Assembly (NCBI GenBank): GCA_036676985.1
Contig: JAKFBU010000038.1
Coordinates: forward strand, 96,001 to 160,000
Direction: 5' to 3'
DNA length: 64,000 nt
Source: Candidatus Sericytochromatia bacterium
GTDB taxonomy: Bacteria; Cyanobacteriota; Sericytochromatia; S15B-MN24; UBA4093
Shown: piece by piece, positions 50,877-58,691 of the stretch
Numbering within the stretch: the first letter of the stretch is position 1
Layout of the letters: each line of letters begins with the position of its first letter
Notes under the pieces: generated by a model
Databases searched by the model: none
What the model was told of the DNA's origin: nothing
The model's input: only the letters and a program-made list of their open reading frames with translations
Made by a program: the position numbers and the translations under genes

Positions 50877-52259
50877 CTACATGTGGATGGGCTGGCCGAT
50901 GGCGGCGAGGGCCGCTTCCTTGATAGCCTCCGACAGGGTCGGGTGGGCGTGGATCGTCAGGTCGATCTCGGTGGCCGTGGTCTCGAGCGTCATGCCGAGG
51001 CCCACTTCGCTCAAGAGCTCCGTCACCTCGGGCCCGACCATGTGCGCGCCGATGATCTCGCCGTACTTGGTGTCGACCACGAGCTTCACAAAACCGTCGG
51101 TCTCGCCGAGGGCCTGGGCCTTGCCGTTCGGGGCGAACGGGAACTTGCCGACCTTCACGTCGAGGCCGCGCTTCTTGGCCTCTTCCTCGGTGAGGCCGAT
51201 GGAGGCCACCTGGGGCTCGCAGTAGGTGCAGCTCGGGATGCGATCGTAGTTGATGGGCGTGGGGTGGTGGCCCGCGATGTGCTCGACGCAGATGACGCCC
51301 ATGGCCGACGCCACGTGGGCGAGCATGGCCTTGCCCGTCACGTCGCCGATGGCGTAGAGGCCCTCGACGTTGGTCTTGCCGAAGTCGTCGGCCACGATGA
51401 AGCCGCGATCGGTCTTGACGCCCAGGGTCTCGAGGCCCAGGTTCTCGGTGTTGGGCGAGAAGCCGATGCCGACCAGCAGCTTGGGGGCTTCGAGCTCCTT
51501 GGTTCCCTTGGCGCTCGAGAGCGAAACCTTGACGCCGTCGGCGCGCTGCTCGACCTTCTCGACCTTGTGGCCCGTGAGGACCTCGATTCCGAGCTTCTTG
51601 TAGGCGCGCTCGAGCACGGCGGCCACCTCGGCGTCCTCGCGGGGCAGCAGGTGGTCGGCCATCTCGACGATGGTCACCTGGACGCCGTAGTTGGCGAAGA
51701 CGAAGGCGAACTCGACGCCGATGGCGCCGCCGCCGAGCACGATGAGCTTGGAGGGCAGGTCGCGCATGTGGACGGCTTCCTTGGCGGTGTAGACCACCTT
51801 GGCGTCCGCCGTGAGGCCCGGCAGGAGGCGCGGACGGGCGCCGGTCGCAATCACGATGTGCTTGGCCGTGATTTCCTGGCCGTTGTCGACGGCGATCTTG
51901 CCCTTGCCGACGAGGCGGCCGCGGCCCTTGACCACGTCGATCTTGTTCTTCTTCATCAGGAAGCCGAGACCCGTGGTCTGCTTCTTGACCACCGCCTCGG
52001 AGCGATCGACGGCCTTGGTGTAGTCGGGCTTGATGCCGTCCACGGCGATGCCGAAGGTGTCGGAGTGCTTGATGGTGTGCAGCACCGAGGCGTTCTTCAA
52101 GAGGGCCTTGGTCGGGATGCAGCCCCAGTTGAGGCACACGCCGCCCAGCTCCTCGGCCTCGACGATGGCCGTCTTGAGACCGAGCTGGGCCGCGCGGATG
52201 GCGGCGACGTAGCCGCCCGGGCCCGAGCCGATGACTGCGAGATCGTAGGTGGTTGCCAT
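50877..52259 (-). CDS. lpdA: Dihydrolipoyl dehydrogenase (E3)
   Basis: GSGPGGYVAA, GGVCLNWGCIPTK, HAHPTLSE. Confidence 0.97.
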   Translation of the reverse strand: MATTYDLAVIGSGPGGYVAAIRAAQLGLKTAIVEAEELGGVCLNWGCIPTKALLKNASVLHTIKHSDTFGIAVDGIKPDYTKAVDRSEAVVKKQTTGLGFLMKKNKIDVVKGRGRLVGKGKIAVDNGQEITAKHIVIATGARPRLLPGLTADAKVVYTAKEAVHMRDLPSKLIVLGGGAIGVEFAFVFANYGVQVTIVEMADHLLPREDAEVAAVLERAYKKLGIEVLTGHKVEKVEQRADGVKVSLSSAKGTKELEAPKLLVGIGFSPNTENLGLETLGVKTDRGFIVADDFGKTNVEGLYAIGDVTGKAMLAHVASAMGVICVEHIAGHHPTPINYDRIPSCTYCEPQVASIGLTEEEAKKRGLDVKVGKFPFAPNGKAQALGETDGFVKLVVDTKYGEIIGAHMVGPEVTELLSEVGLGMTLETTATEIDLTIHAHPTLSEAIKEAALAAIGQPIHM

Positions 52260-52375
52260 GATGAAGCTTCCTTTTTTACTGAGAGGAGCCGTCCGCTCTG
52301 GGAGCGGAGGCTCGGATGGTCTGGGGTTCAAGATCGGGCAGGCCGGGGGACGCCAAGCATCCCCCGGCCAGCAGG

Positions 52376-53632
52376 TTAGAGCAGGAGCAGCATCGGGGTC
52401 TGCAGGATGCGCTTGACCTCCGCGAGGAACTGCGCGGCCGTGGCCCCGTCGATGACCCGGTGATCGCTCGACATGGTGACGCGCATGATCGAGCGGACGA
52501 CGATCTGGTCCTTGTCGCCCACCACGGGCTCCTTCTTGATGGAGCCGATGGCGAGGATCGCCGACTCGGGCGGGTTGATGATGGCCGTGAAGCTCTCCAC
52601 GTCGAAGGAGCCCAGGTTGCTCACCGTGATGGTGCCGCCGCCCATCTCGTCCGGCCGCAGCTTGTTGGCCTTGGCGCGGGCGACGATCTCCTTGGTCTCC
52701 CGGGCGATCTCCGGCAGCGACTTGCCGAGGGCGTTGTGGAGCACCGGCACCACCAGGCCCTCGGGCAGGGCGACGGCGATGCCGACGTTCACCTGGCCGC
52801 GCTCGATGATGCGGGTCTCGCCCCAGCTCGCGTTGACGGTGGGGAACTTGGCCGCGGCCTTGGCGACGGCCTTGACGATGATGTCGTTGAAGGAGACCTT
52901 CTCCTCCTCGCTCACCGCCTGGTTCAGCTGGCTGCGGAAGGCCATCGCCTCGGTCATGTCGATGGCGTTGGTGACGTAGAAGTGCGGGGCCGTCACCTTG
53001 CTCTCGGAGAGCCGGCGAGCGATCGCCTGGCGCATCCGCGAGATGTCGACCGGACGGTCCGCGCCGCCCACGAGGGGAGCCGCCGCGCGGGCACCCGCGG
53101 CCGGGGCCTTGAAGCCCTCGACGTCGCGGCGCACGATCCGGCCGCCCGGGCCGCTGCCCGGTACCTGGCCAAGATCGATGTGCCGCTCGGCCGCCACGCG
53201 GCGAGCGAGGGGCGACGCCTTGACGCGACCGCCGGCGAGCGGCTGGGCCGTCGGGTAGGGCGCGCTCGGAGCCGAGGGGTACTCGGTGGGCGCTTCTTCG
53301 GACTCGGCGGCGGCGGGCGCCTGCGAGACCGGGGTCATGCCGGCCGCGGCCGCAGGGGCCGGGGCGCTGGGCTCGCCGACTTCCACCTTCTCGCCGGGCT
53401 GGGCGATGATGGCGATGGGCTGGCCGACGGGCACGTCCTCACCCGCCTGGTGCAGGATCTTGGCGAGGACGCCCGAGTCGAAGGCCTCGATCTCGATGTT
53501 GACCTTCTCGGTTTGGATCTCGGCGACGGGCTCGCCCTTGTTGACGGCGTCGCCCTCGTTCTTGATCCAGCGAAGGATCTTGCCCTCGGTCATGTCGTAG
53601 CCCATCTTGGGCATCAGTACGTTGGTGGCCAT
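52376..53632 (-). CDS. pdhC: Pyruvate dehydrogenase E2 acetyltransferase
   Basis: Lipoyl domain (QTEKVN), KASPLARR binding domain, SDHRVIDG. Confidence 0.95.
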   Translation of the reverse strand: MATNVLMPKMGYDMTEGKILRWIKNEGDAVNKGEPVAEIQTEKVNIEIEAFDSGVLAKILHQAGEDVPVGQPIAIIAQPGEKVEVGEPSAPAPAAAAGMTPVSQAPAAAESEEAPTEYPSAPSAPYPTAQPLAGGRVKASPLARRVAAERHIDLGQVPGSGPGGRIVRRDVEGFKAPAAGARAAAPLVGGADRPVDISRMRQAIARRLSESKVTAPHFYVTNAIDMTEAMAFRSQLNQAVSEEEKVSFNDIIVKAVAKAAAKFPTVNASWGETRIIERGQVNVGIAVALPEGLVVPVLHNALGKSLPEIARETKEIVARAKANKLRPDEMGGGTITVSNLGSFDVESFTAIINPPESAILAIGSIKKEPVVGDKDQIVVRSIMRVTMSSDHRVIDGATAAQFLAEVKRILQTPMLLLL

Positions 53633-53658
53633 GTTGAAACCTCCAGGCTGCTTACAGG

Positions 53659-54630
53659 CTACTTGAGGACGTCGCGGATGGCCTCGACGACGTTGGCCTT
53701 GTGGGGGTAGGCCGCCATTTCGAGGTGCTTGTTGTAGGGGGCGGGCACCTCGACGCCGGCGACGCGGCGGACGGGCGCATCGAGGTAGTCGAAGGCCTCC
53801 TCGGAGACGCGCGCGGCGATCTCGGCGCCGATGCCGAAGGTCTTCCAACCCTCCTCGGCGACGACCAGGCGGTTGGTCTTCTTGACCGACTCGAGCACGG
53901 GCTCGAGGTCCAGCGGACGCAGCGTGCGCAGGTCGATCACCTCGACGTCGATGCCCTCCTTGGCGAGGTCGTTGGCGGCCTCCATGGCGGCGATCGCCAT
54001 GCGCGAGTAGCTCACGACCGTCACGTCCTTGCCGGGGCGGCGCACCACGGACTTGCCGATGGGCACCAGGTACTCCTCCTCGGGGACCTCGCCCTTCACT
54101 CCGTAGATGAGCGCGTGCTCGATGAAGATGACGGGGTCGTCGTCGCGGATGGCGCTCTTGAGGAGGCCCTTGTGGTCGTAGGGGGTGCTCGGCATGACCA
54201 CCTTGAGCCCCGGCACGTAGGCGAAGAACAGCTCGAGGGTCTGCGAGTGGGTCGCCGACAGCTGGCTCCAGCCCGACGGGGTGCGCATGACCATGGGCAC
54301 CTTCATCTGCCCGCCGAACATGTAGCTCAGCTTGGCCGCGTGGTTGACGACCTGGTCGACGGCCTGGAGGGCGAAGTTGATGCTCATGATCTCGGGCACC
54401 GGGCGCAGGCCGCCCAGGGCGGCACCCGTGGCGGCCCCGATGATGGCGGTCTCCGAGATGGGCGTGTCCTTGACGCGCTTTTCGCCGAACTCGTCGACGA
54501 AGCCCTTGGTGACGCCGTAGGCGCTGCCGTAATAGGCGATGTCCTCGCCCATCAGGAAGACGTTCTCGTCCCGGCGCATCTCCTCCCGCAGGGCTTCCTG
54601 GATGGCCTGGCGAACGGTAAGAATCGGCAT
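53659..54630 (-). CDS. pdhB: Pyruvate dehydrogenase E1 beta
   Basis: MGEDI, DTPISE, ATHSQ, IDLRTLRPLD. Confidence 0.95.
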   Translation of the reverse strand: MPILTVRQAIQEALREEMRRDENVFLMGEDIAYYGSAYGVTKGFVDEFGEKRVKDTPISETAIIGAATGAALGGLRPVPEIMSINFALQAVDQVVNHAAKLSYMFGGQMKVPMVMRTPSGWSQLSATHSQTLELFFAYVPGLKVVMPSTPYDHKGLLKSAIRDDDPVIFIEHALIYGVKGEVPEEEYLVPIGKSVVRRPGKDVTVVSYSRMAIAAMEAANDLAKEGIDVEVIDLRTLRPLDLEPVLESVKKTNRLVVAEEGWKTFGIGAEIAARVSEEAFDYLDAPVRRVAGVEVPAPYNKHLEMAAYPHKANVVEAIRDVLK

Positions 54631-54649
54631 GAGTGTGTGTCTCCTAGTG

Positions 54650-55633
54650 CTAGCGCGCCAACTCGGGCTGGATGGGGTTGGCGTAGATGAAGTCGGTCAA
54701 GGTCGAGAGCTCGGGCTCCGGGCTCTCGTCGGCGAAGCGGACGGAGGCTTCGGCCTCGTCGGCTGCCGACTTCTCGAGGGCGTCGAGCTCGGCCTCGGTG
54801 GCGACGCCATCCTGGATCAGGCGCTGGCGCCAGGTGAGGATGGGGTCGCGCTGGCGCCAGAGCTCGACTTCTTCCTTGGAACGGTACATCTCGGGGTCCG
54901 CCATGGAGTGGCCGCGGAAGCGGTAGGTCTTGGCCTCCAGGAGGACCGGGCCCTTGCCCGCGCGGACATGGTCGACGGCCTTCTTGGTGGCCTCGTAGGA
55001 GGCGAGCACGTCCATGCCATCGAAGGACCAGCCCGGCATGCCGTAGCTGTCGGCGCGCTTGTACAGGTCGGAGATCGACGAGTCCATGTGGGTCGCAAGG
55101 CCCATGGAGTAGAGGTTGTTCTCGATCAGGAAGATGACGGGCAGCTTGAAGACGGCCGCCATGTTGAGCGACTCGTGGAAGCCGCCGTTGTTGGAGCTGC
55201 CGTCGCCGAAGATGGCCATGGCGAGCTGGTCACGGCCCTTGTACTGGTGCGAGAGCGCCAGGCCCACGGCCAGGGGGATGTGGGCGCCGACGATGGCGTA
55301 GCCGCCCCAGAAGTGCTTGCTGACGTCCGCGAAGTGCATGGAGCCGCCGCGGCCCTTGCTGCAGCCGGTCGCCTTGCCGTAGAGTTCGGCCATCAGGGAG
55401 TTGGTGTCCAGGCCCCGGGCGATGGCATGCCCGTGATCGCGGTAGTGCGTGACGATGTCGTCGTCATCGTTGAGGGCGGCGATGGAGCCGACCGCCACGG
55501 CCTCCTGGCCGATATACAGGTGCAGGAACCCCCCGATCTTGGCATACGCATAGCCCTCGGCACACTTCTCTTCGAAGCGGCGGATCAGGACCATCTTGCG
55601 ATACCACTCCAGGGCTTGCTGCTTATCCACCAT
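54650..55633 (-). CDS. pdhA: Pyruvate dehydrogenase E1 alpha
   Basis: GGFLHLYIGQEA, GRGGSMH, FGDG..N TPP motif, YRFRGHSMADP. Confidence 0.96.
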   Translation of the reverse strand: MVDKQQALEWYRKMVLIRRFEEKCAEGYAYAKIGGFLHLYIGQEAVAVGSIAALNDDDDIVTHYRDHGHAIARGLDTNSLMAELYGKATGCSKGRGGSMHFADVSKHFWGGYAIVGAHIPLAVGLALSHQYKGRDQLAMAIFGDGSSNNGGFHESLNMAAVFKLPVIFLIENNLYSMGLATHMDSSISDLYKRADSYGMPGWSFDGMDVLASYEATKKAVDHVRAGKGPVLLEAKTYRFRGHSMADPEMYRSKEEVELWRQRDPILTWRQRLIQDGVATEAELDALEKSAADEAEASVRFADESPEPELSTLTDFIYANPIQPELAR

Positions 55634-55927
55634 CTGGAAAGCTCCTTACTCTACAAAGGCGAAGGGCGACGTTCGTGGGTACCCCTGGCGACCAACCGAT
55701 CGTAACACACCTTCGTGAATCCTCACGAAGGCCCATGTAAGCAAATCAGGGCGCGGGTTTTGACCCGACGCCCTCGTCACGGTACCAAGAGCAGCGGCCT
55801 CGTTGCCGGCTCTCTGAGCATAACAATACCAGGTATCGGGCGACAAGGCATTCTTTACGAACCGTAAACCTCGCCTTGACCTCTGCCAGGCGCTATACTG
55901 CCGGGAGGCCCTGCAAAGGAGGACTTC

Positions 55928-56455
55928 ATGGCACGGATTGAACCCTTACCCATCGACGCCGCACCGCCCGGCGTGCGGGAGGTCTTCGACGGCTTCATGC
56001 GCGCGCGCGGCAACGTCCCCAACATGTTCCGGACCATGGCCCTGGTGCCCGAGCTCGCGACCACCCTGTCCGCGCACTTCAAGGCCGTGCTCAACGCCGG
56101 TACCGTCGAGCTGCGGCTCAAGGAGCTCCTGGCCGTCCGGGTGTCCCAGGTCAACAGCTGCAACTACTGACTGGCCTCCCACACTGCTTTGTTAAAGCAG
56201 CTCGGAGCCACGGACGAGACGATCGACGCCCTGACGCGCTGGGCCGAGGCCGGCGCCTTCACGCCCCGCGAGAAGGCCGCCCTGGAGCTCGCCGAGCGCA
56301 TGACGCGCGACGCGCACACGGTGGACGACGCCCTCATGAGCGAGCTCAGGCGCTGGTTCGCGGACTCCGAGATCGTGGAGCTTGCGGCCGTCATCGGGAT
56401 CTTCAACTACTTCAACCGCTTCAACGACGCGCTGGACGTGGACATCACCCGCTGA
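55928..56455 (+). CDS. AhpD/carboxymuconolactone-decarboxylase-family protein, probable selenoprotein (TGA 56168-56170 = Sec; 175 aa)
   Basis: The two ORF-track pieces are in one frame; joined they read KELLAVRVSQVNSCNY*LASH...REKAALELAE..T...EIVELAAVIGIFNYFNRFN, a full AhpD-like protein with TGA at the second Cys of CxxC. Confidence 0.85.
56171..56210 (+). promoter_or_regulatory. Bacterial SECIS-like hairpin
   Basis: Upper stem CTGCTTT-GTT-AAAGCAG (56184-56200), lower stem TGGC(C)TCC/GGAGCCA; apical loop starts with G, 20 nt after the TGA. Confidence 0.75.
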
Positions 56456-56549
56456 TCCGATCGCTTGACTGTTTACAAAAATTCACTAACATCGGTGTAG
56501 CAGACGTTCCGGGTGCGGGGGTGACTCCGCGTTACTAGAGGAGGTACTG

Positions 56550-57104
56550 ATGCGCCGTCCCATGCTTCCCGTCGCCGCCCTCATCCTCGCCCTGTCGGGC
56601 GGAGCGGCCCTCGCTGCGGCCGAAAAGCCCGCCCAGCCCACCCAACCGACCCAGGCCAAGAGCCCCGCCAAGGCAGCCCCCAAGGCGACCGCGGGCAAGC
56701 CCGGGTCGGCCGACGCCAAGCAGCCCAAGTCCGAGATCAAGTCCATCGGCATCCCAACCGTCAAGGAGACGCAGCAGACGCCCGAGCAGATCAAGGCCCA
56801 GCAGGCCGAGTGGAAGAAGATCGACGACCAGCAGGCCTCCGAGCGCAAGGAGCGGCGGGAGCGCTACAAGGCCGTTCGGGCCGAGTTCGCCAAGGAGGGC
56901 ATCAAGTTCAAGAAGGCCTCGAAGCCTGACACCTACCGCGTGTATGCCCCGGCGGTCGCCCAGACGACCGACCCAGCTCAGCGCAAGGCGGCGGCCAAGG
57001 CCCTGGTCACGCGTCTCAAGGGCCAGTTGGAGCCCATCTTCAAGAAGAAGCTCACCTTCGAGATCTACACCGACGACAAGGTGACCCAGCGCGTCACCTT
57101 CTGA
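56550..57104 (+). CDS. Secreted hypothetical protein, Lys/Ala/Pro-rich N-terminal part
   Basis: GAGGAGG RBS, signal peptide ending ALA, biased codons. Confidence 0.8.
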   Translation: MRRPMLPVAALILALSGGAALAAAEKPAQPTQPTQAKSPAKAAPKATAGKPGSADAKQPKSEIKSIGIPTVKETQQTPEQIKAQQAEWKKIDDQQASERKERRERYKAVRAEFAKEGIKFKKASKPDTYRVYAPAVAQTTDPAQRKAAAKALVTRLKGQLEPIFKKKLTFEIYTDDKVTQRVTF

Positions 57105-57141: not shown

Positions 57142-58566
57142 TTAGCCGCCGTTGAGCGAGTAGTGCCAGGGCTCGGGTGGATAGTTGTGGAAGCCGAACC
57201 GGGTGGCGTTGCGCTTGAGCCAATCGTAGGCGCCCGGGGTGTTCCGGAAGTCGATGGCGTCGCCCTTCTCGTGGTTGCTGGTGCCAGGCCGCGCGACGTA
57301 CTTGGGGTTGGGGTTCGCCCGCCACAGTTCTTCCTGCTCGGCACGGCTCCGGTAGCCGGAGCTGATCTGGAGATTGATGCCGTCGCGGGCCGCGGCCGCC
57401 ACCATGGCGTCGAACTGGCCGGCCAGGTGCGCGCCGATGTAGTGCCCCTGTCGGCGGACAGCCGGCTTGGGGCCGCCGATGTTGATCACTTCGTCGCTGT
57501 TGCCGCCCGGAGTCTGGTGGACTTGACCTTCGACCCTGATGCCGAGCTCGGTCCAGGTCTTGGGGCCCACGATGCCGTCGGCCTGGAGCCCCTTGGACTG
57601 CTGGAAGCCCTTGACGGCGGCGACGGTCCTGGGGCCCATGGCGCCGTCGGAGGCACCCGGATCGAAGCCCAGCTCCCGCAGTCGATCCTGCAGCTTGCGC
57701 ACCGGGTCGCCGTTCGCGCCCTGCTTGAGCAGCGGGCCGGAGCCGCCGGGCTTGGGCATGGAGACCTGACCTTCGACCTTGATGCCGAGCTCGGTCCAGG
57801 TCTTGGGGCCCACGATGCCGTCGACCTGGAGCCCCTTGGACTGCTGGAAGCCCTTGACGGCCGCGACGGTCTTGGGGCCCATGGCGCCGTCGGTGGCACC
57901 CGGATCGAAGCCTAGCTCACGGAGCCGATCCTGCAGCCTGCGCACGGGGTCGCCGTTGGCGCCCTGCTTGAGCAGCGGGCCGGATCCCTCGGGCTTGGGC
58001 GCGGAAGCCTGGCCATCGACCTTGATGCCGAGCGCGGTCCAGGTCTGGGGGCCGACGATGCCGTCGACCTGGAGCCCCTTGGCCTGCTGGAAGCCCTTGA
58101 CGGCCGCGACGGTCTTGGGGCCCATGGCGCCGTCGGTGGCACCCGGATCGAAGCCCAGCTCACGGAGCCGATCTTGCAGCCTGCGCACGGGGTCGCCGTT
58201 CGCGCCCTGCCTGAGCAGCGGGCCGGACCCCTCGGGCTTAGGTTCGGGCTTGGGCTCAGGCTGCGCGGGGCTGGCCGGTGCCTTGGGCTGCTCCTGTTTG
58301 GCGGGCTGGCCCATCAGGAGCTTGTGCAGCATCTCTGTGAGCCGAGAGATCGTGCCGTTCTGGATGTAGGGCGTGAGCGCCGGGTTGACGGCTGACGCCG
58401 GGGCAGCGCTTTGCGAGAGGGTGAGCGTGTCGACGGGCGGGGCCGGCGGCGCGGTCGGAACGGTAGGAGCGCATTGCATTTGACGCAGCGCACCGAGCAG
58501 TTGCTGGTACTGGGGGACGCTCGTAGGGGGAGCGTAGGAAGTTGCTGCCAAATTGCGAGGATCCAC
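57142..58566 (-). CDS. 3x peptidoglycan-binding domain + M15-family D,D-peptidase
   Basis: Three LxQG.NGDPVR.LQ..L..LGF..DG..GP.T..AVKGFQ..GL..DGIVGP.TW repeats; SGYRS, SNHEKGDAID, EPWH; GTG start after GGAGGG. Confidence 0.9.
   Translation of the reverse strand: MDPRNLAATSYAPPTSVPQYQQLLGALRQMQCAPTVPTAPPAPPVDTLTLSQSAAPASAVNPALTPYIQNGTISRLTEMLHKLLMGQPAKQEQPKAPASPAQPEPKPEPKPEGSGPLLRQGANGDPVRRLQDRLRELGFDPGATDGAMGPKTVAAVKGFQQAKGLQVDGIVGPQTWTALGIKVDGQASAPKPEGSGPLLKQGANGDPVRRLQDRLRELGFDPGATDGAMGPKTVAAVKGFQQSKGLQVDGIVGPKTWTELGIKVEGQVSMPKPGGSGPLLKQGANGDPVRKLQDRLRELGFDPGASDGAMGPRTVAAVKGFQQSKGLQADGIVGPKTWTELGIRVEGQVHQTPGGNSDEVINIGGPKPAVRRQGHYIGAHLAGQFDAMVAAAARDGINLQISSGYRSRAEQEELWRANPNPKYVARPGTSNHEKGDAIDFRNTPGAYDWLKRNATRFGFHNYPPEPWHYSLNGG
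57520..58235. repeat. Three tandem 243-bp coding repeats (PG-binding domains)
   Basis: GCCGAGC..GGTCCAGGTC recurs at 57541, 57784 and 58027. Confidence 0.9.
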
Positions 58567-58691
58567 GGGCAATCCCTCCATCACGAGATACATGTTGCTT
58601 GTGGTCGTCGGGGTGGCAATCCTGAGTAAAATCGCTTCCAAGTTTCGTTAAAGTTTGGCTTAACCGTCGGGAAGTCTGATTTAATGGGGGC

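Follow-up and report, generated by a model that had tools for sequence, protein, structure and literature searches.

We report that positions 55928 to 56455 (+ strand) of a 64,000-nucleotide (nt) stretch of the Candidatus Sericytochromatia bacterium genome (assembly GCA_036676985.1, contig JAKFBU010000038.1, positions 96,001 to 160,000; hereafter the window) very probably constitute a single functional gene for a 175-residue AhpD-like (TIGR01926/COG2128) selenoprotein, in which an in-frame UGA would be read as selenocysteine (Sec). For this reading as a whole, including Sec insertion itself, we estimate a probability of about 0.93. The region holds one frame with the UGA as its only interruption, the product belongs to a known family and has its fold, the genome encodes the Sec machinery, and homologs alternate between Sec and Cys at the same column. 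Moreover, a conserved and covarying hairpin follows the UGA, as expected of a selenocysteine insertion sequence (SECIS). From these features we infer Sec insertion, as well as the substrate and the reductant that are proposed below.

The reading frame and the hairpin behind the UGA

The open reading frames (ORFs) 55928-56170 and 56189-56455, both on the + strand, share one frame and are separated solely by the TGA at 56168-56170 (codon 81), which takes the place of the second Cys of a CxxC-x3-H motif; an initial annotation, made from the sequence alone, had pointed this out, and it was right. Reading through the TGA gives a coding sequence of 175 codons and a stop codon that is also TGA (56453-56455), and the motif becomes S-C78-N-Y-U81-L-A-S-H85, i.e. 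CxxU-x3-H, with Cys78 encoded by TGC at 56159-56161 and His85 by CAC at 56180-56182. A Shine-Dalgarno-like AAGGAGG (55916-55922), read from the sequence, is located 5 nt upstream of the ATG at 55928, and by inspection no such site precedes the TTG at 56189, where the second ORF starts within the hairpin. A promoter and terminator scan of 55600-56600 gave one promoter-like site, downstream of the gene, and no terminator, and no RNA run was listed among the sequencing runs with this locus. The expectation that standard pipelines would split the gene was borne out, since its 80- and 88-residue halves are recorded as separate proteins in at least one public gene-call collection. For the collection holding the two pieces the gene is indeed hidden, and the single-gene reading corrects this fragmentation.

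The hairpin, CTGCTTT-GTT-AAAGCAG, begins 13 nt after the UGA and occupies 56184-56200 (5' arm 56184-56190, loop GTT 56191-56193, 3' arm 56194-56200), with 7 bp in the stem and a 3-nt loop whose G (56191) lies 20 nt past the last base of the TGA, at the distance given by the initial annotation. The minimum-energy fold of the site includes this hairpin plus a lower stem. That rare codons build the hairpin was also confirmed: the shares of ACT, GCT, TTG and TTA among the codons of their own amino acids are 0.020, 0.043, 0.062 and 0.003, respectively, in 1248 long ORFs of the genome, a set filtered for GC content at third codon positions (≥0.75) that somewhat overstates the rarity. Thirteen of the 176 codons of the gene end in A or T, viz. 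the two TGAs, five codons within codons 2-12, four in or beside the hairpin and others elsewhere, such that the hairpin region holds four of the 11 sense codons of this type. Two Cys orthologs have the identical peptide LASHTALLKQLGAT, encoded by ACC/ACG GCC TTG CTC/CTG as compared to ACT GCT TTG TTA in the window, and each of the three synonymous differences (codon shares 0.020, 0.043 and 0.003) adds one stem pair.

Perfect Watson-Crick hairpins of at least 7 bp in the SECIS zone occur at 730 of 40000 random in-frame sites of the genome (1.8%), and 387 of the 40000 also have a G early in the loop. Taken by itself, without homologs, the hairpin is therefore only suggestive, and it is the comparison with homologs that places it beyond chance. 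For this comparison, contigs of genomes and metagenomes were scanned with peptide patterns and the best 80 loci per scan were taken, 160 in all with 49-70% identity; they come from Chloroflexota, Acidobacteriota, one Bacillota genome and metagenomes. The motif reads C-x-x-TGA in 73 of these, T-x-x-C in 68 and C-x-x-C in 16, while three were unparsed. The column of the in-frame TGA is thus TGA in 73 and Cys in 84 of the 160 loci, which is the alternation that the initial annotation had proposed to look for.

All seven stem pairs are present at the fixed offset in 72 of the 74 TGA forms (the window included), and the remaining two have six and five pairs. In contrast, only one of 88 Cys forms, a set in which two loci are counted twice (L022 is L035 and L024 is L036), has seven pairs, and most have one to four. 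The stem of the window is the same in position and sequence as that of 22 Chloroflexota-type TGA forms, and compensatory variants of it are found (CTGCTTT/AAAGCAG, CCGCCTT/AAGGCGG, CCGTCTT/AAGACGG and CTGCCTG/CAGGCAG). In the 69 distinct sequences, 99.4% of the cells of the upper helix are paired; double-sided changes occur at four of the seven pairs (in 23, 12, 22 and 4 sequences), the other three pairs being invariant, and the covariation score of the stem exceeds those of all 500 shuffles and of all slid registers. To keep the test non-circular, a covariance model was made from the other 73 TGA forms, without the window; it matched 56168-56218 with 57.5 bits (E-value 1.8e-12). This is the sole match in the 64 kb, the next score being 9.5 bits. 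Cys orthologs of the same clade reach 27.4-37.7 bits, the part of the score that coding similarity accounts for. The overall folding energy downstream of the codon was tried as a discriminator and rejected (-17.7 and -17.2 kcal/mol for Sec and Cys forms, respectively; p = 0.26), and the two forms are told apart solely by the position-specific pair count. A separate observation is a Terriglobia homolog (L105:3515-3565) with TGT (Cys) at the Sec column, a perfect 7-bp hairpin and a GGC loop (43.4 bits), which looks like a very recent Sec-to-Cys replacement.

Protein family, fold and putative catalysis

The read-through protein matched Pfam CMD (8.4e-23) and passed the NCBIfam model TIGR01926, "peroxidase-related enzyme", with 97 bits over residues 5-171 (cut-off 81.8). 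It failed the models for YciW-related (seleno)proteins (NF053654; 89.1 against a cut-off of 310) and for AhpD-related (seleno)proteins (NF041238, 59.9 against 175; NF041047, 25.5 against 110), and also TIGR00777, the Mycobacterium tuberculosis-type AhpD (25.9 bits against 191.95). The nearest solved structures at the sequence level were Pseudomonas aeruginosa PA0269 (7e-20), 2oyo (1e-19, full length), 6k40 (4e-16) and Bmp8 (6e-14). An AlphaFold model computed from a 33-row alignment (pLDDT 95.8) is all-alpha with nine helices, of which helix 79-91 holds residue 81 in its first turn. With Foldseek the model gave template modelling (TM) scores of 0.84-0.89 to 6k40, 2oyo, 2prr, 2pfx and Bmp8 (0.89 to the first three), as compared to 0.59 (rank 46, E 0.15) to 1gu9, the AhpD of M. 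tuberculosis. The assignment to the AhpD/CMD family consequently stands on the CMD and TIGR01926 matches and the fold, but the protein is not of the M. tuberculosis AhpD type.

Glu66, Lys65, Arg71, Asn76 and Tyr80 are invariant in the 160 homologs. His85 and the PNMF and FNxFNR blocks do not vary in this set either, but their constancy was imposed by the search and scan patterns; in the 33-row alignment His85 is invariant as well. The first motif position is Cys in 92 of the 160 and Thr in 68, and the second is always Sec or Cys; because of this, residue 81 is taken to be the essential nucleophile, and Cys78 putatively the resolving residue. The 68 T-x-x-C loci (L058-L114 and others) are acidobacterial and form one well-supported clade that has kept only the second redox residue. 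In the AhpD of M. tuberculosis the nucleophile is the second Cys of the CxxC, and a proton relay is formed by a His and a Glu, the latter 12 residues ahead of the first Cys. Glu66 (codon at 56123-56125) is located 12 residues before Cys78 and is a putative proton-relay residue.

By analogy with the standard bacterial mechanism, the UGA would be decoded by Sec-tRNA(Sec) delivered by SelB, which in turn would be recruited by the 7-bp stem with its 3-nt loop 13 nt past the UGA. In the protein, Sec81, at the start of helix 79-91, would be the reactive nucleophile of C78-x-x-U81, assisted by His85 and Glu66. The substrate that oxidises it may be a peroxide or else a protein thiol in oxidised form, e.g. 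that of a peroxiredoxin; the oxidised Sec81 would then form a selenenylsulfide with Cys78, to be re-reduced by a cellular dithiol.

Selenocysteine machinery and evolutionary history

The genome (79 contigs, with an estimated completeness of 100% and an estimated contamination of 5.09%) was searched for the Sec machinery, and all of its parts were found, each above the curated cut-off: selB (380.6 bits) and selA (627.4 bits) adjacent to each other on contig C62, a tRNA-Sec on the same contig (75.2 bits; called SeC with anticodon tca by ARAGORN) and selD (387 bits), which carries an in-frame TGA of its own. Among 401 genomes sampled across the phylum, selA was present in 23, all in five families (f1, f3, f4, f5 and f7) that group with the class of the window, and it was not found in the other families of the sample (e.g. 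0/170, 0/45, 0/29 and 0/25). Within the family of the window, two genera (five genomes searched) have no detectable selA, and selB, selD and tRNA-Sec were likewise not found in four of these genomes. A congener (G001, 87% complete) has selA, selB, selD and tRNA-Sec, and no ortholog of the gene studied here was found in it. Taken together, these counts suggest that Sec decoding is a trait of the Sericytochromatia-like class and has undergone repeated loss. According to excerpts of a 2006 survey, Sec decoding was not detected in Cyanobacteria (PMC1794560), and excerpts of a 2016 survey mention Cyanobacteria just for an orphan selD (PMC5029168). A literature search pairing "Sericytochromatia" with "selenocysteine" returned no paper.

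Close orthologs of the gene were found in four of 41 related genomes; they have 67-70% identity, all belong to the family of the window and all have TGC at the column. In these four genomes (96, 85, 100 and 91% complete) selA, selB, selD and tRNA-Sec were not found, and the hairpin of the orthologs is down to four to five of the seven pairs, or fewer. The initial annotation had seen trouble for the Sec reading if relatives all had TGC and no conserved hairpin; this is the situation in the four closest orthologs, but not among the wider homologs, 73 of which have TGA and a hairpin. A quick maximum-likelihood tree (160 rows, LG+G4, SH-aLRT support only, Sec/Cys column masked, unrooted) groups the window and the four Cys orthologs as a 5-row clade (support 90) in which the window is sister to two of them (97), and a mostly-Sec Ktedonobacterales clade lies beside this group. 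The backbone of the tree consists of Sec forms; the C-x-x-C forms are scattered at its tips (nine changes of the Sec label) and the T-x-x-C forms are a single clade (support 100). The ancestor of the 5-row clade probably had Sec and a Chloroflexota-type stem, after which two lineages would have lost the Sec system, changed to Cys and let the hairpin decay. The window gene is then most likely the retained ancestral form. Within one bacterial family, the gene has Sec plus SECIS in the genome with the Sec machinery, and Cys plus a decayed hairpin in those for which no such machinery was detected. Turnover between Sec and Cys was reportedly described in general by Zhang et al. in 2006, and this gene offers a clean example.

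The window gene is not the only candidate in its genome. A simple scan of the genome for TGAs flanked on either side by strong coding signal yielded 23 candidates. Four are further likely selenoprotein genes: two are rhodanese-like, with Y-C-T-TGA-P (best NCBIfam match NF041203, below cut-off), one is peroxiredoxin-like, with F-T-P-G-TGA, and one is ResA/TlpA-like, with W-TGA-G-A-C, the family matches of the latter two also being below the curated cut-offs. They are located at C7:53243-53878 (-), C19:1137-1487 (-), C23:185213-185746 (+) and C23:238009-238602 (-). A second TIGR01926 gene (L034; 92 bits; C41:73908-74345, - strand) reads C-P-F-TGA-V-D-S-H, has a hairpin after the TGA and encodes a protein with 26% identity to that of the window. 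Wherever a simple perfect-stem search found a hairpin for these five genes, it had a short stem and a 3-4-nt loop starting with G. Finally, a 458-residue ORF at C73:127057-128433 (+) matches nothing in Pfam or NCBIfam and carries an in-frame TGA within G-P-x-x-D-P-TGA-[VL]-E-[FM]-C-G. Homologs of it, collected from the 41 related genomes, have TGA in the same column (L202-L205; 34-39% identity, from four related genomes that all have selA), and a fifth (in G001) ends at a contig edge before that column. After these TGAs an 8-9-bp stem with a 3-nt loop starts 13-15 nt later, and the stems differ by compensatory changes. This group is a candidate for an uncharacterised selenoprotein family with a U-x-x-x-C motif.

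Gene neighbourhood, alternative readings and known systems

Divergent from the gene is a 2-oxoacid (pyruvate) dehydrogenase (pdh) operon at 50877-55633 (-), recognised by Pfam, with E1 alpha at 54650-55633, E1 beta at 53659-54630, E2 at 52376-53848 and E3 at 50877-52331 (all on the - strand). The initial annotation had proposed a lipoamide-fuelled module made of the two, in which the seleno-AhpD is re-reduced by the lipoyl-E2 and E3 of the neighbouring operon, as in the mycobacterial Lpd-DlaT-AhpD-AhpC chain, and serves in peroxide defence. The divergent pairing is real, with 294 nt between the start codons; it is present in all four same-family orthologs, and the mycobacterial path from NADH through Lpd, DlaT and AhpD to AhpC is documented in excerpts of the literature (PMC12028322). 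However, the coupling itself has no support beyond this gene order, and the adjacency is limited to a single family-level clade, where it holds whether the form is Cys or Sec. Overall, synteny with pdh holds for seven of 165 loci (five without two duplicates), namely the same-family orthologs and one distant acidobacterial locus. This last (L066, where the gene lies ~5 kb off and the E1 alpha is 33% identical) is the only one of 158 loci outside the same-family set with any pdh-like gene; 157 loci, those outside L020-L024 with L035 and L036 included, were parsed for flanks, which reached 2.5 kb or more upstream in 84 and downstream in 102. The neighbours at the other loci are of another kind, a HAD hydrolase or a STAS protein with an RsbW-like kinase. 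Moreover, the protein falls far short of TIGR00777 and of a close match to 1gu9, as given above, and the 16 ORFs scanned between 47 and 64 kb include no AhpC or peroxiredoxin gene, the peroxiredoxin-like selenoprotein gene of the genome being on another contig. We consider re-reduction by the adjacent operon unlikely. It is a shade more doubtful still that the AhpD-like protein and the operon are one functional unit throughout the Sericytochromatia-like family, with the Sec form kept here and downgraded to Cys in the relatives; were it so, the mycobacterial Lpd-DlaT-AhpD logic would extend to a different AhpD subfamily and to non-photosynthetic relatives of the cyanobacteria.

A neighbour conserved across the whole family was sought among the loci and none was found, the neighbours being lineage-specific. 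In the T-x-x-C clade a HAD-family hydrolase gene is usually downstream, and in two clusters (25 and 22 loci) a STAS-domain protein and an RsbW-like HATPase_c_2 kinase are encoded upstream on the same strand (e.g. L176:1325-1696 and L187:531-1061). Almost all members of these clusters are Sec forms, many are metagenome contigs, and they fall in the acidobacterial part of the tree. The arrangement may point to a connection with a partner-switching stress module. Two genes downstream of the AhpD-like gene, the window encodes a 499-residue protein (57142-58641, -) that has three peptidoglycan-binding repeats in tandem and, at its C-terminus, a D-Ala-D-Ala carboxypeptidase domain of the VanY type.

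The same selenoprotein might instead carry out another thiol or selenol chemistry, such as reductive dehalogenation like that of Bmp8 or the reduction of small electrophiles, an option that we rate slightly below the lipoamide coupling. Bmp8 (6ohi and 6ohj) ranks with the best structural matches (TM 0.85-0.86, E 2e-9, in addition to its sequence match of 6e-14), most of the closest relatives with a solved structure come from structural genomics and have no proven function, and no conserved partner gene points towards peroxide metabolism. On the other hand, the D. radiodurans AhpD (6k40) matches equally well or better (TM 0.89), and no halogenation genes were seen in the scanned neighbourhood.

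Several points weigh against reading the gene as a SECIS-dependent selenoprotein with the history outlined here. The fold z-score of the single sequence (-1.26) is not significant, and an Rfam scan of 55800-56600 with E-values up to 10 returned four chance-level matches and no SECIS family. The lower stem noted in the initial annotation is present in the minimum-energy fold of the window but is not conserved, with 55% of the cells paired in the homologs, and it was rejected as a feature of the family. The loop is GTT, as opposed to GGC in all 73 other TGA forms, and recognition of this variant by SelB is assumed. The homologs were drawn by peptide patterns, such that their proportions are not population frequencies and some "invariant" residues are pattern-forced, and the Sec-to-Cys direction would follow from parsimony on an unrooted quick tree. 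Furthermore, the comparison with independent contigs, from four runs of four studies over 55850-56520, covers the 40 differences listed out of 86, and the best-matching run may be the source sample itself.

Could the gene then be a pseudogene, in which a TGC of a Cys-type AhpD-like gene has mutated to TGA next to a coincidental hairpin? The four closest orthologs have TGC, hairpins of such a class are found at 1-2% of random in-frame sites, and the z-score is as given above. Against this stand the stem shared in position and sequence with the 22 Chloroflexota-type TGA forms, the three rare synonymous codons that build it and the 57.5 bits obtained with a model made without the window. The close orthologs share 58-69 of the 94 residues that follow the TGA and 47-60 of the 80 that precede it, i.e. 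there is no decay, the Sec machinery is intact, and variant strains from other studies keep the TGA with nearby differences that are mostly at third positions. Specifically, the contig from one run (X1) covers the whole gene with three differences, none in the TGA or the hairpin, and one from another (X4; 56017-56206) has 16 differences, all listed, again none in the TGA or the hairpin, of which 10 are at third codon positions and three more amount to two synonymous changes. A pseudogene is accordingly very improbable. An error of sequencing or assembly, or another decoding of the UGA (e.g. near-cognate read-through as Trp or Cys), is even harder to credit: the assembly is in 79 contigs with 5.09% estimated contamination, and the evidence comes from assembled contigs as opposed to raw reads or RNA, but no listed difference of any run falls in 56168-56170 or 56184-56200, so the TGA is kept in separately assembled contigs of other studies, and with the same codon and hairpin at 73 other loci and a SelB/SECIS system present, Sec is the simplest reading.

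With UGA81 read as Sec, the gene can be compared with systems already described. Solved peroxidase-related AhpD/CMD proteins (6k40, 2oyo, 2prr, 2pfx and PA0269, 2ijc/7xw1) share the all-helical fold along their entire length (TM 0.84-0.89; sequence E-values of 7e-20 to 2e-13) and their CxxC-x3-H in the same place; all of them have Cys where the window protein would have Sec, and most are without a demonstrated function. With M. tuberculosis AhpD (1gu9) it shares the superfamily, a CxxC-x3-H type centre and a location near genes for lipoamide enzymes, but differs in failing TIGR00777, in the TM score of 0.59, in having no ahpC nearby and in a pdh link that is not conserved outside one family. 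Bmp8 debrominase has the AhpD fold and is of the same length class (TM 0.85-0.86), with 26-27% identity and a different gene context. Canonical bacterial SECIS elements of the Escherichia coli fdhF type are, like the one proposed here, stem-loops within the coding sequence after the UGA, with a G-first apical loop ~20 nt downstream; the window hairpin differs from these and from the Rfam models in its simple 7-bp stem and 3-nt loop, with no conserved lower stem and no Rfam match.

The closest counterpart is the AhpD-like selenoprotein family itself, and the novelty implied by the initial annotation is not borne out. As described in excerpts of the respective publications, an "AhpD-like protein" (COG2128, CxxU, 27 sequences) was introduced as a new selenoprotein family by a 2005 Sargasso Sea study, which also noted conserved guanosines in the apical loops of the SECIS elements (PMC1088965). 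The Global Ocean Sampling (GOS) study lists "AhpD-like 1" (COG2128, CxxU) with 299 Sec and 902 Cys members (PMC2398784), a 2026 review lists "AhpD-like protein, TIGR01926, CxxU" as a selenoprotein family (PMC13188914), and the AhpD-like selenoprotein is a browsable family in BSepDB (PMC13326102). The gene thus belongs to a selenoprotein family known since 2005 and brings no new principle in itself. It agrees with that family in passing TIGR01926, in the CxxU motif, in its widespread Cys homologs, in a SECIS directly after the UGA and in the G of the apical loop, while it differs in its host lineage, a Candidatus Sericytochromatia family, in the GTT loop and in having closest orthologs that have reverted to Cys.

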